64,000 nt of DNA from Novosphingobium sp. (GTDB taxonomy: Bacteria; Pseudomonadota; Alphaproteobacteria; Sphingomonadales; Sphingomonadaceae). The notes beneath the pieces are model-generated. The model did not search any database. It saw only the letters and a program-made list of their open reading frames with translations, and had not been told where the DNA came from. Both the position numbers and the translations under genes were made by a program. Shown piece by piece: positions 53,582 to 58,923 of this stretch. How positions within the stretch are numbered: the first letter of the stretch is position 1; every line of letters starts with the position of its first letter. The stretch is taken from assembly GCF_019748365.1 (NCBI RefSeq), contig NZ_JAIEPN010000035.1, positions 46,911 through 110,910 on the forward strand, given 5' to 3'.

Positions 53582-54820
53582 ATGGCCGACACATCGCTGC
53601 CGAGCGTCATGCTCATCGTGACGCAGGATACCAAGGAAGAGGAATCGCGCTTTGTCCGCACCGTGCTGGAAGCGGCAGGCGTGCGCGTCGTGCATCTCGA
53701 TCCGAGCGTACGTCGCACCGTCGGCGGGGCCGAGATTTCGCCCGAGGACGTGGCGGCAGCAGCCGGCATGACCATCGAGGACGTCCGCGCGCTGGGCCAT
53801 GAAGGCAAGTGCCAGGACGCGATGATCCGCGGTTCGATCGCTGCGGCGCACGCATGGAACGCCAAGGATCCGATCTCCGGCATTCTCGCCGTCGGCGGCT
53901 CGATGGGCTCGGCGCTCGCCGGCGCGCTCATGCAGAGCTTCCCTTATGGCCTGCCGCGCATGATCGTCTCGACGATGGCCTCCGGTTTCACCAAGCCCTA
54001 TATGGGCGTGCAGGACATCGCGATGATGAACGCGGTGACCGACATTTCCGGGCTCAATTCGATCAGCCGCGATGTGTTCCGCAATGCCGCCAACGCCGTC
54101 GCCGGCATGGCCAGGGGCTATGATCCCAAGGCGGCGGCGGAAAGGCCGCTGGTGCTGATCACCACGCTCGGCACCACCGAGGCGAGCGTCAAGCGCATCC
54201 GCGAGGCGCTGGAAAACGATGGCTGCGAGGTCATGGTGTTCCACTCCTCGGGCGCGGGCGGGCCGACGCTCGATGGCCTTGCGGCAGGCAAGGATGTCGC
54301 GCTGGTGCTCGATCTTTCGCAGACCGAGATCATTGACCACATCTTCGGCGGCCTCGCCGATACCGGGCCGGACCGGGGCCGCGCGGCGCTGCTCAAGGGC
54401 ATTCCGACGATCCTCGCGCCGGGCAATGCGGACTTCATTATTGGCGGGCCGATCGACGTCGCGCGCGTGCAGTTCCCCGGACGGCGGTATCACGAGCACA
54501 ACCCGCAGTTGACCGCAGTGCGCACGACCTTCGAGGACCTCAAGAAGCTCGCCGATCACCTCGCTGCCAATGTGCGCGACGCCAAGGGGCCGGTGCGCGT
54601 GTTCACCCCGCTCCACGGCTTTTCCAACCACGACAGCCCGGCCGGCCACCTGATGGACCCGAGCGTGCCGCCGCCCTTTGCCGAGTATCTGCGGGCCGTG
54701 ATGCCCGCAGAAGTGCCGGTGACCGCAATCGACGCCCACTTCAACGAGACCGCCTTCTCCGACGCGATCATCGCCGCCGCGCGCGAGATGCTGGCCAATG
54801 GGCATGAGGGCCGAGCATGA
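53582..54820 (+). CDS. Tm-1-like ATP-binding domain protein (UPF0261)
   Basis: VTQDTKEEE, GGSMGS, PYGLPRMIVST, DIAMMNAVTDISGLN, VFHSSGAGG, HEHNPQLTAVRT, AHFN. Confidence 0.85.
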   Translation: MADTSLPSVMLIVTQDTKEEESRFVRTVLEAAGVRVVHLDPSVRRTVGGAEISPEDVAAAAGMTIEDVRALGHEGKCQDAMIRGSIAAAHAWNAKDPISGILAVGGSMGSALAGALMQSFPYGLPRMIVSTMASGFTKPYMGVQDIAMMNAVTDISGLNSISRDVFRNAANAVAGMARGYDPKAAAERPLVLITTLGTTEASVKRIREALENDGCEVMVFHSSGAGGPTLDGLAAGKDVALVLDLSQTEIIDHIFGGLADTGPDRGRAALLKGIPTILAPGNADFIIGGPIDVARVQFPGRRYHEHNPQLTAVRTTFEDLKKLADHLAANVRDAKGPVRVFTPLHGFSNHDSPAGHLMDPSVPPPFAEYLRAVMPAEVPVTAIDAHFNETAFSDAIIAAAREMLANGHEGRA

Positions 54821-55263
54821 ACGAGGACCTACCCCTTACCGCGGAGGATATCGCCGAAATCGCGGCGATCATCGAGGCCTCGCCCTATCGCGAGCTGGAC
54901 CTTTCGACGAGGCGGTTCCGCCTGCGGCTCGCACGAGGCGACGGGGCCGAAGCGGGCCTGACTCAGGAATGGCAGTGGGCGGGGAGCGGTCCTGAAGCGG
55001 CAGTCGCCGAGGCCGAGCACGCGGCCGATCCCGATACGATTGCTGCGCCACTTCCCGGCACCTTCTATCACGCGCCGCAGCCCGGTGCCCCGCCGTTCGT
55101 CGCGGTGGGCGATGCAGTCGGGCCGGAAACGGTCGTCGGCATTGTCGAGACGATGAAGCTGATGAACCCGGTGCACGCCGGGCGCGCCGGCACGGTAGCC
55201 GAAGTGATCGTGCCCAATGCGACGATGGTCGCCAAGGGCCAGCCCCTGATCCGGCTGGCCTGA
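54817..55263 (+). CDS. Biotin carboxyl carrier protein
   Basis: APLPGTFY, PPFV, VETMKLMN biotinylation motif. Confidence 0.92.
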   Translation: MNEDLPLTAEDIAEIAAIIEASPYRELDLSTRRFRLRLARGDGAEAGLTQEWQWAGSGPEAAVAEAEHAADPDTIAAPLPGTFYHAPQPGAPPFVAVGDAVGPETVVGIVETMKLMNPVHAGRAGTVAEVIVPNATMVAKGQPLIRLA

Positions 55264-55280
55264 GCGCAAAGGCCAGAACC

Positions 55281-56615: not shown

Positions 56616-58084
56616 CAACGCTAAAGCTGGTCGACGTGACCATGCGCGATGGCAACCAGAGCCTGTGGGGCGCCACCGGGCTCAACACTGCGCATATGCT
56701 GCAGGCCGCCGCGCTCACCGAGGCCTGCGGCTTTCGCGCCATTGACTTTACCTCGTCGAGCCACATGGCCGTCGCGGTCCGCTACTTCCGCAACAATCCG
56801 TGGGAACGGCTGCGGCGCATGGCATCGGCGATGCCCACCACGCCGCTACAGTTCATCACCACCGGCCTGCGCTTCATCGCCTGGCAGCAGGCGGACCCGG
56901 AGTTCATGCGGCTCGTCTACCGCGCGCTTCAGGTGAACGGCGTCGGTCGTTTCGTGCTGCTCGATCCGATGCATGAAGTGCCCGCGGTGATCGAGGCGGC
57001 GCGCCTGGTGAAGGAAGAAGGCAGCGCCGAAGTGATGTGCGCCCTCACCTTCACCCTCTCCGAGTTCCACACCGACCAGTTCTATGCCGATTTCGCCCGC
57101 GCCGTCGGCGAGAGCCCCGATATCGACCTTTTCTACATCAAGGACCCCTCGGGCCTCCTCTCGCTCGACCGGGTGCGTACGCTGGTGCCGGCGGTGAAGG
57201 CTGTGATCGGCAATCGTCCGCTCGAGATCCACGCCCACACCACGATTGGTCAGGGCATGCTCTCCAGCCTCGAGGCGGCGAGGCTGGGCATTTCGGCAAT
57301 CCATGTCGGCATCGGCGCGGCGGGTGATGGGTCTTCGCTGCCCGAGGCCAACCGCATGCTCGCCAATCTCGAAGAAGCGGGCCATACCGTCGAGATCGAC
57401 CGCGCGGCGCTGGCGAAGCTGACATCCTACTGGAACCGGCTGGCGCTTGCGGAAAACCTGCCGTTCGGACAGCCGCAGAACTTCGATGCAAGCTTCCTGC
57501 GCCACCAGATCGCCGGCGGCGTGATGACGACAACCGCGCGCCAGCTTGCCGAACTTGGCCTCTCCGACCGCTTGCCCGCTGTCATCGCCGAGACCGAGCA
57601 GGTCCGCGCCGAGCTCGGCTATCCGATTATGGTCACGCCCTTCCCGCAGATGGTCATGAGCCAGGCGCTATTCAATGTGATCGGGGATCGCCGTTATGCG
57701 CAAGTCTCCGATCAGGTGATCCGCTACTGCCTCGGCAAGTTCGGCAAGCCGACTTCGCCCATCGACAAGGGCGTGCTGGGGGCGATCATGGACCGGCCCC
57801 GCGCGCGCGAACTGGAGAACGAGCCCACTTTCCCCGCGCTCGGCGATCTCAGGCGCCAGTTCGGCCATGCCATGCCCGACGAGGAATTCCTGCTGCGCGC
57901 GGTCATGCCGCCCGAGCAGGTCGATGCGATGCTGGCCGCCGGGCCATCGCGCGCCACCTACACGCCCGAGGCCGCGCCGGTAATCGCGCTATTGCGCCAG
58001 CTGGCGGCAAAGCCAATCGCGCGCGACCTTGTCATCGAGCGCGGTGCGTTCCGCCTTGCCCTTCACGCCGGAGCCAGCCTGTGA
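56612..58084 (+). CDS. Stand-alone pyruvate-carboxylase-type carboxyltransferase (HMGL-like TIM barrel)
   Basis: DVTMRDGNQSLW, IKDPSG, EIHAHT, GYPIMVTP; no fused biotinyl domain. Confidence 0.88.
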   Translation: MTTLKLVDVTMRDGNQSLWGATGLNTAHMLQAAALTEACGFRAIDFTSSSHMAVAVRYFRNNPWERLRRMASAMPTTPLQFITTGLRFIAWQQADPEFMRLVYRALQVNGVGRFVLLDPMHEVPAVIEAARLVKEEGSAEVMCALTFTLSEFHTDQFYADFARAVGESPDIDLFYIKDPSGLLSLDRVRTLVPAVKAVIGNRPLEIHAHTTIGQGMLSSLEAARLGISAIHVGIGAAGDGSSLPEANRMLANLEEAGHTVEIDRAALAKLTSYWNRLALAENLPFGQPQNFDASFLRHQIAGGVMTTTARQLAELGLSDRLPAVIAETEQVRAELGYPIMVTPFPQMVMSQALFNVIGDRRYAQVSDQVIRYCLGKFGKPTSPIDKGVLGAIMDRPRARELENEPTFPALGDLRRQFGHAMPDEEFLLRAVMPPEQVDAMLAAGPSRATYTPEAAPVIALLRQLAAKPIARDLVIERGAFRLALHAGASL

Positions 58085-58923
58085 CGATTTCCCCCGAGCA
58101 TGCCGCACGGCTGAAGGACGCCGCCGGCTACATCTTCGACATGGACGGCACGATTGCCCTGGGCGATGCGCAGAGCGGAGGCCACAATGCCCTCCCACAT
58201 GCCATCGGGCTGCTGGACGCGCTGAAGGCGCGCGGCACGCCCTATGTCGTCTTCACCAATGGCACGGCCAAGCCGCCCGCGGCTTATGCGGCGTCGCTGC
58301 GCAAGGCTGGGTTTGCGGTTGAGGACGGGCAGATGCTGACGCCCTCCTCATCGACCGCCGACTGGCTCAAGCGCACCGGCGTGGGCAAAGTGCGCGTGCT
58401 GGGCAATGCGGGCTGCCGCGCGCCGCTCGATGATGCGGGGCTCGATGTGGTGGGACCGGACGTGGCGGCAGAGGGCGTCGAGGCGGTCTACACCGGCTGG
58501 TTCCGCGAGTTCGATTTTCCGGCGCTGGAAGCCGCCTGCGATTCCTTGTGGAAGGGCGCCAGGCTGCTCACCGCCAGCAACGTCCCGTTCTTCGCCACCG
58601 CCGCTGGACGCGCGATTGGCGCAAGCTATCCGATCAATGCCATGCTGACGGCGATGACCGGCAAGCGTCCGCGCATTCTCGGCAAACCCTCGCGCGTCGC
58701 GTTCGATACGGCGCGGCTGCTGATGGGGCTGCCCCGCAGCGCGGCGAAGCAGATGGTCGTGGTGGGCGATGACCCGGCGCTCGAAATGCGCATGGCAAAC
58801 GCAGTTGGCGCGCTGTCAGTGGGCATGGCGACGGGCGTCATGACCAAAGGCGCCGAACTGCCCGAGCGCGACCGGCCGGCGGTGCTGCTCGACAGCCTCA
58901 AGCCGCTGCTCGACCTGCTCTAA
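58081..58923 (+). CDS. HAD-IIA (NagD-like) phosphatase
   Basis: FDMDGT, VFTNGT, LGKPS, VVGDD; GTGA overlap with CT gene. Confidence 0.88.
   Translation: MTISPEHAARLKDAAGYIFDMDGTIALGDAQSGGHNALPHAIGLLDALKARGTPYVVFTNGTAKPPAAYAASLRKAGFAVEDGQMLTPSSSTADWLKRTGVGKVRVLGNAGCRAPLDDAGLDVVGPDVAAEGVEAVYTGWFREFDFPALEAACDSLWKGARLLTASNVPFFATAAGRAIGASYPINAMLTAMTGKRPRILGKPSRVAFDTARLLMGLPRSAAKQMVVVGDDPALEMRMANAVGALSVGMATGVMTKGAELPERDRPAVLLDSLKPLLDLL

Follow-up and report, generated by a model that had tools for sequence, protein, structure and literature searches.

A probable marK-acvCDEF operon in a freshwater Novosphingobium, headed by an orthologue of the UPF0261 kinase MarK

The subject of this report is a five-gene operon at positions 53582-58923 of a 64-kb stretch of Novosphingobium DNA (64,000 nucleotides of contig NZ_JAIEPN010000035.1, referred to throughout as the window), which is headed by a gene for a UPF0261 (Tm-1-like) protein and whose closest described relatives are catabolic systems for hydroxyaryl ketones. 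In the Hpe system, the biotin-dependent carboxylase HpeCBA acts on 4-phospho-acetovanillone and 4-phospho-acetophenone, and not on the free ketones, with one ATP converted to ADP per turnover (PMC9618137). The corresponding enzymes of Sphingobium sp. SYK-6, the carboxylase AcvCDE and the phosphatase AcvF, were described by Higuchi et al. 2022 (bioRxiv 10.1101/2022.04.28.489975). The system that most closely resembles the one presented here is that of Novosphingobium aromaticivorans DSM12444, reported by Hall et al. (J Biol Chem 2025; PMC12624787).

In DSM12444, Saro_1862 (MarK) heads the transcription unit Saro_1862-1858, the other four genes of which are homologues of acvCDEF, and no homologue of the AcvAB or HpeHI kinase is encoded in this strain. 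The E16K form of Saro_1862 is required for, and suffices for, growth on acetovanillone, the substitution raising ATP-dependent phosphorylation approximately 1600-fold; purified MarK E16K, acting alone, phosphorylates acetovanillone stoichiometrically, converting ATP to ADP, and deletion of the acvC or the acvF homologue (Saro_1861 or Saro_1858) leads to loss of growth on the same compound. MarK accepts a range of syringyl (S), guaiacyl (G) and p-hydroxyphenyl (H) aromatics whose side chains bear a keto or aldehyde group, and supports growth on acetovanillone, 4-hydroxyacetophenone and guaiacylpropanone. Its crystal structure is available (PDB 9MPY), and Lys16 of MarK has been equated with Lys20 of tomato Tm-1; DSM12444 is the sole Novosphingobium with Glu at position 16, a residue that is rare and renders the enzyme nearly inactive (PMC12624787). 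With MarK the widespread UPF0261 domain acquired a first catalytic function, for which the credit belongs to the 2025 work; MarK is a one-gene kinase that opens lignin- and bisphenol-derived hydroxyaryl ketones to carboxylative catabolism. The system is already cited as textbook context in later papers.

The five-gene operon and its predicted kinase

The locus is read here as the marK-acvCDEF operon of a freshwater Novosphingobium, an orthologue of the characterized DSM12444 system, with a probability of roughly 0.9. Its five co-oriented genes, identified from open reading frame (ORF) positions and from Pfam and NCBIfam matches, are the following:

53582-54820, + strand: marK orthologue, UPF0261 (Tm-1-like) predicted ATP-dependent hydroxyaryl-ketone kinase, 412 amino acids
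54817-55263, + strand: acvC-like biotin carboxyl carrier protein (BCCP), 148 amino acids
55281-56615, + strand: acvD-like biotin carboxylase (BC), 444 amino acids
56612-58084, + strand: acvE-like stand-alone carboxyltransferase (CT), HMGL-like TIM barrel plus PYC_OADA, 490 amino acids
58081-58923, + strand: acvF-like HAD-IIA (NagD-type) phosphatase, 280 amino acids

The evidence that carries this reading comes from the first gene. The UPF0261 protein contains both the N-terminal, ATP-binding domain (PF06792, residues 8-180, E 7e-55) and the C-terminal, substrate-binding domain (PF23189, residues 188-403, E 3e-63) in a single, stand-alone polypeptide, and scores 497 bits against the NCBIfam model PRK02399.1-2, the cut-off of which is 335. 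Among solved structures the best match is 9MPY, MarK E16K (E 1.7e-222), with tomato Tm-1 at E 7e-51; the alignment to 9MPY is ungapped and 334 of 402 residues (83%) are identical. All ten of the ATP- and substrate-site residues named in the MarK paper are kept: the ATP-site residues D14, T15 and K16 correspond to D16, T17 and K18 of the window protein, and the seven residues of the acetovanillone pocket (G195, T196, H219, F283, I285, H304 and H348) are identical. The lysine that had to be introduced by mutation in DSM12444 is therefore native here, and in view of the published E16K result the window protein would be expected to be active in its natural form. In public databases the kinase is named just 'Tm-1-like ATP-binding domain-containing protein'.

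The position of this gene, first in an operon with acvCDEF homologues, completes the likeness. Direct reading of the junctions reveals, in order, an ATGA overlap between the marK and BCCP genes, a 17-nt gap (GCGCAAAGGCCAGAACC) between the BCCP and BC genes, an ATGA overlap between the BC and CT genes, and a GTGA overlap between the CT and phosphatase genes, a layout that speaks for translational coupling, and the five genes probably form one transcript. A search for RNA runs with the locus found none, the locus being present only in metagenomic DNA runs, and a consensus scan of 53300-59300 for promoters and terminators gave nothing above shuffled expectation.

A first-pass annotation of the same DNA had set out this gene content, the three overlaps with one gap, and the order of the last four genes (carboxylase, then phosphatase, as in the SYK-6 acv cluster), all of which stand. 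It had also proposed that the UPF0261 protein is a phenol kinase for an Acv/Hpe-type aryl-ketone carboxylase, which proves correct in light of what was demonstrated for Saro_1862; since Hall et al. had already shown MarK activity, the kinase reading is not new (PMC12624787). Its statement that UPF0261 proteins lack an assigned bacterial function has been overtaken by the publication of the function, the 9MPY structure, the acvC and acvF knock-outs and a phylogenomic survey. The system is already known, its genetics, biochemistry and structure having been published in 2025, and the locus is an ordinary instance of it. What the window adds is one more orthologue, in the native Lys16 form, which agrees with the view of DSM12444 as the exception (PMC12624787).

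Conservation and distribution of the operon

The arrangement was followed through a scan of species-representative genomes, which yielded 76 related loci of 20 kb each, mostly from Novosphingobium, the closest at 97% amino-acid identity. Provided that the locus extends far enough, BCCP, BC, CT and HAD genes follow the MarK homologue without exception, in the same order and on the same strand, a constancy that places the arrangement far beyond chance. The nearest species representatives compared, among which DSM12444 did not figure, are approximately 85% identical to the window in DNA. Exact k-mers of the window are shared with metagenomes from drinking water, biofilters, wastewater and freshwater, which, with the DNA identity, points to a freshwater Novosphingobium species other than DSM12444 as the source. 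The region 53400-59000 has near-identical copies (0.96-1.00 of sampled 31-mers) in metagenomes from drinking water, biofilters, wastewater, aquatic sources and sediment.

The five-gene set also travels on plasmids. In pBAR1 of Sphingomonas bisphenolicum AO1 (locus L077, 1-9357), a cassette of Tm-1-like, BCCP, BC, CT and HAD genes is preceded by genes for a carotenoid oxygenase, an aldehyde dehydrogenase, an NTF2-like protein, a thioesterase and a member of the beta-keto-acid-cleavage family (BKACE), while in a plasmid of Pseudomonas putida YC-AE1 (locus L078, 1421-11225) the cassette is accompanied by acetoacetate-CoA ligase and amidohydrolase genes. Plasmids of Sphingobium yanoikuyae carry a CT gene at 69% identity whose adjoining gene is annotated as biotin carboxylase. 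AO1 and YC-AE1 both degrade bisphenol A, the breakdown of which passes through 4-hydroxyacetophenone. The presence of the cassettes in such hosts fits the assigned function, and the plasmid gene sets suggest that 4-hydroxyacetophenone could be taken all the way to 4-hydroxybenzoate. No paper tying the plasmid cassettes of these degraders to the carboxylation of 4-hydroxyacetophenone turned up in the literature searched.

The carboxylase, the proposed pathway and rival explanations

The carboxylase is composed of three separate subunits, as in the AcvCDE/HpeCBA type, and the phosphatase gene lies directly 3' of the CT gene, as in the AcvF/HpeD type. The BCCP has a Biotin_lipoyl domain (E 2e-15) and a biotinylation-type ETMKLM motif, and the BC is complete, with Biotin_carb_N, CPSase_L_D2 and Biotin_carb_C domains (E down to 4e-65). 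The CT contains HMGL-like (E 7e-10) and PYC_OADA (E 9e-22) domains and an N-terminal VDVTMRDGNQS motif, with no Biotin_lipoyl domain in its 490 residues. The phosphatase matches Hydrolase_6/Hydrolase_like (E 1e-21) in Pfam and HAD-SF-IIA in NCBIfam, carries motif I (DMDGT), and finds its closest solved structures in p-nitrophenyl phosphatases and NagD.

In the proposed mechanism, which is carried over from published work on orthologues and homologues, MarK, a single-polypeptide, homodimeric UPF0261 kinase, would phosphorylate the phenolic hydroxyl of 4-hydroxyaryl ketones such as acetovanillone, 4-hydroxyacetophenone and guaiacylpropanone, converting ATP to ADP. AcvC, AcvD and AcvE would then use ATP and bicarbonate to carboxylate the phospho-ketone at the carbon beside its keto group, and AcvF would remove the phosphate to yield a beta-keto acid (vanilloyl acetate or 4-hydroxybenzoyl acetate), which enzymes encoded outside the window would convert to vanillate or 4-hydroxybenzoate. 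The idea of an aryl-ketone carboxylase fed by a kinase, as originally put forward for this locus, holds in this scheme with a refinement: the substrate of HpeCBA is the phosphorylated ketone, and the phosphatase acts mainly after carboxylation (PMC9618137).

The comparison with Acv and Hpe enzymes was made by pairwise identity, with a cluster of the same architecture on a plasmid of Rhodococcus sp. JS3073 (in order: PEP-utilizers, PPDK_N, BCCP, BC, CT, HAD and AMP-binding ligase) serving as proxy for AcvCDEF, for Saro_1861-1858 and for the Hpe enzymes of GD02, AcvE, HpeA and Saro_1859 among them. The identities obtained for the window CT by tblastn are as follows:

plasmid-borne, MarK-linked CTs: 49-70%
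hpe-type CT from the Rhodococcus plasmid: 43%
plasmid genes annotated PycB: 36%
annotated OadA: 28-30%

The window BC and HAD proteins are 50% and 35% identical to their counterparts in the hpe-type cluster, and these window identities are close to those between SYK-6 and GD02 (CT 42% and BC 51%, with BCCP at 38%; 10.1101/2022.04.28.489975). At the level of pairwise identity this favours a kinship of the CT with Acv/Hpe-type subunits over one with the pyruvate and oxaloacetate enzymes. In a protein search with the CT, the best 120 matches are all at least 73% identical, and no SYK-6 entry stands among the matches listed. The public names of the CT relatives are misleading, and include 'biotin carboxyl carrier protein', 'oxaloacetate decarboxylase alpha subunit' and 'oxaloacetate decarboxylase (Na+ extruding)'.

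These names, together with the CT's top hits in NCBIfam and the PDB, which are to pyruvate carboxylase subunit B (PycB), OadA and transcarboxylase 5S, are what could be invoked for a conventional multi-subunit pyruvate carboxylase, oxaloacetate decarboxylase or 2-oxoglutarate carboxylase, to which the UPF0261 and HAD proteins would be unrelated neighbours. The matches are nonetheless far below the family cut-offs (247 against 402 bits for PycB, PRK09282; 221 against 756 bits for OadA, TIGR01108), the biotinyl domain is missing, and the CT is closer in identity to the hpe-type CT than to annotated OadA; on the sub-cut-off scores and lower identities, the pyruvate carboxylase and oxaloacetate decarboxylase assignment of the CT was rejected. 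In addition, the carboxylase genes overlap by 4 nt with both marK and the HAD gene, the five genes occur together in the sufficiently long related loci and on plasmids, and deletion of the acvC or acvF homologue abolishes growth of DSM12444 on acetovanillone (PMC12624787), all of which makes this explanation barely credible.

A second explanation would make the UPF0261 protein a non-catalytic, ATP-binding accessory or regulatory partner, with the true kinase, of the AcvAB/HpeHI type, encoded elsewhere in the genome. Tomato Tm-1 is indeed a binding protein, the window covers 64 kb of the genome, and of the genomes that have at least one of the two kinase types approximately 25% have both, a figure that also runs counter to the mutual exclusion of MarK and AcvAB/HpeHI that had been suggested as a check (PMC12624787). 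In the window, none of the approximately 50 large ORFs has a PPDK_N or PEP-utilizers domain in Pfam, and tblastn with the HpeH-like and HpeI-like subunits of the JS3073 cluster as queries reached a best E value of 0.9; the same search found no match in the 76 related 20-kb loci (0/76). The absence from the window of a two-subunit kinase resembling phosphoenolpyruvate (PEP) synthase, and of a PEP-hydrolase-like TIM-barrel partner, for which the ORF scan found no candidate among the neighbours, had been noted in the first-pass annotation and is borne out. Against an accessory role it also counts that MarK E16K phosphorylates acetovanillone with no other protein, in a species devoid of AcvAB/HpeHI (PMC12624787), and that the window protein, at 83% identity, has every named residue, including the lysine associated with the approximately 1600-fold increase. 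An accessory role is thus considered very improbable.

The same enzymes could also act in the order put forward for SYK-6, where Higuchi et al. proposed that AcvF removes the phosphate before AcvCDE acts, leaving a phenolate-type intermediate for carboxylation. AcvF does dephosphorylate phospho-acetovanillone; crude AcvCDE, for its part, leaves the free ketone unchanged and converts the phospho-ketone (10.1101/2022.04.28.489975). With purified HpeCBA and HpeD, however, a carboxylated phospho-intermediate was detected by mass spectrometry, and HpeD, which preferred the carboxylated phospho-product, failed to accelerate the carboxylase (PMC9618137); for the window enzymes, phosphatase action ahead of carboxylation is accordingly regarded as unlikely, though less so than the two explanations above.

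Several points weigh against the marK-acvCDEF assignment itself. In the MarK crystal the ATP and acetovanillone sites lie approximately 25 Å apart (PMC12624787), a distance that also counts in favour of an accessory role. The kinase activity predicted for the window protein is transferred from its orthologue, where it was demonstrated for a single protein, Saro_1862 E16K, and the proposed orthology of the acvCDEF genes draws on synteny, on the identity of MarK and on the proxy hpe-type cluster. Lys16 was found in 73 of 73 readable related sequences, a count that is partly biased by the inclusion of TQDTKEEE in one search pattern. No HpeE-like ligase and no downstream genes of the vceA/vceB or hpeE/hpeF type were found in the 64 kb, and an AcvAB/HpeHI kinase may also be encoded beyond them, as it is in roughly one in four such genomes.

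The divergent block and other neighbours

Upstream of marK and divergent from it lies a block of genes (43148-53476, - strand) for regulators, an alcohol dehydrogenase, a VOC protein and a transporter that is beyond the scope of the MarK paper, which mentions neither regulator nor transporter (PMC12624787). Its members, with two motifs from the intergenic region, are:

52610-53476, - strand: IclR-family regulator (HTH_IclR and IclR_C), divergent from and adjacent to marK
51475-52488, - strand: zinc-dependent alcohol dehydrogenase (Zn-ADH/MDR; Pfam, NCBIfam)
50850-51404, - strand: VOC/Glyoxalase_4 protein, with weak likeness to methylmalonyl-CoA epimerases
49588-50907, - strand: MFS transporter (Pfam, NCBIfam)
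48623-49525, - strand: AraC/FeaR-like regulator (Pfam, NCBIfam)
45927-48509, - strand: TonB-dependent receptor
53492-53508, unstranded: imperfect palindrome GTTTCACCATATGCAAC, candidate operator or promoter element
53528-53540, unstranded: second intergenic motif GTGCAAAGTCAAC, candidate promoter or operator element

Beyond the TonB receptor, the block continues with three ChrR-like cupins and a VanA-like Rieske oxygenase. The order of the block beside marK is kept in most of the 76 sphingomonad loci, in most of which the IclR gene is adjacent and divergent, and the alcohol dehydrogenase, VOC and MFS genes remain linked even where the locus is rearranged; in DSM12444, Saro_1863 encodes an IclR protein (+1) and Saro_1867 an AraC protein (+5), a locus-tag spacing that matches the window. 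The position and synteny of the IclR protein point to it as a candidate regulator of the operon, and the conserved synteny of the accessory block hints at a possible link to the pathway. The block is missing beside the plasmid cassettes, and so is not an obligatory part of the system.

The two motifs are conserved across species; they emerged when the IclR/marK intergenic regions of 24 related loci were aligned, and are visible solely in this cross-species comparison, an exact-seed inverted-repeat search of the intergenic region having returned nothing. In three loci (L026, L035 and L074) the palindrome reads GTTTCA-N5-TGAAAC. Further upstream, approximately 12 kb away, a VAO/PCMH-family flavoprotein (40346-41848, - strand) is close to the Novosphingobium vanillyl-alcohol oxidase nsVAO (PDB 9FFK/9FGE; 838 bits over 499 residues) and is adjoined by an SDR gene (42276-43151, - strand); one may speculate that this flavoprotein could act upstream of the ketone pathway, with 4-alkyl or 4-hydroxymethyl phenols as the compounds that it oxidizes. 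Taken as a whole, the block from the IclR gene to the TonB receptor, with the cupins, the Rieske oxygenase, the SDR protein and the nsVAO-like protein further upstream, could tentatively be seen as an extension of the MarK pathway, serving in uptake and regulation, in the oxidation of 1-aryl-ethanols or alkylphenols to MarK's ketones, and in the handling of branched beta-keto acids from propiophenone-type substrates, with IclR binding the GTTTCAC..GCAAC motif; this is a possibility that we rate as somewhat doubtful.

Two other regions of the window deserve mention in their own right. A 652-codon ORF (11643-13601, - strand) has a coding-like G+C content at third codon positions (GC3) of 0.84 and no Pfam match at E <= 1e-5, and is located where the GC content of the window peaks (0.69-0.71), beside a gene for a XerC/D-like tyrosine recombinase (10696-11688). 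The region 22189-36193 is a starch/maltodextrin-type utilization locus, with genes for an esterase, a GH97 protein and two alpha-amylase-family proteins, and also a tryptophan-halogenase-like gene, a TonB-dependent receptor, a LacI regulator and an MFS transporter.

Comparison with known systems

Tomato Tm-1 (PDB 3WRV-3WRY) and plant Tm-1-like proteins that join UPF0261 to a TIM barrel share with the window protein the two-domain UPF0261 fold and the ATP-binding N domain, but Tm-1 inhibits a viral replicase by binding it and carries the fused TIM barrel, whereas the window protein is stand-alone, with no TIM-barrel gene nearby. Likewise, the window CT has in common with PycB, OadA and transcarboxylase 5S the HMGL-like TIM barrel and PYC_OADA domains, but differs from PycB and OadA in its scores below the cut-offs, in its identities of 28-36%, in its genomic context and in the lack of the fused, C-terminal biotinyl domain that OadA and most PycB proteins possess.

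Among the catabolic systems, hpeHICBADEF of Rhodococcus rhodochrous GD02 (Dexter et al. 2022) resembles the locus in its combination of a kinase, a three-part biotin carboxylase and a NagD-like phosphatase. In the JS3073 proxy, PEP-utilizers and PPDK_N kinase genes stand where the window has marK, and the Rhodococcus cluster also carries the CoA ligase and hydrolase of the last steps, both of which are absent from the window. The acvABCDEF cluster of Sphingobium sp. SYK-6 has the same order of BCCP, BC, CT and HAD genes and belongs to a pathway from acetovanillone to vanilloyl acetate, but employs the two-subunit, phenylphosphate-synthase-like AcvAB together with an AraC-type regulator, in place of the single UPF0261 gene and the adjacent IclR gene seen here. 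The closest counterpart is therefore marK-acvCDEF of DSM12444 (Saro_1862-1858), which comes from a different species of the same genus and has the same five-gene order, a MarK protein at 83% identity and the same flanking IclR (+1) and AraC (+5) genes, and from which the window differs in having as its native residue the Lys16 that replaces the wild-type Glu16 of that strain.

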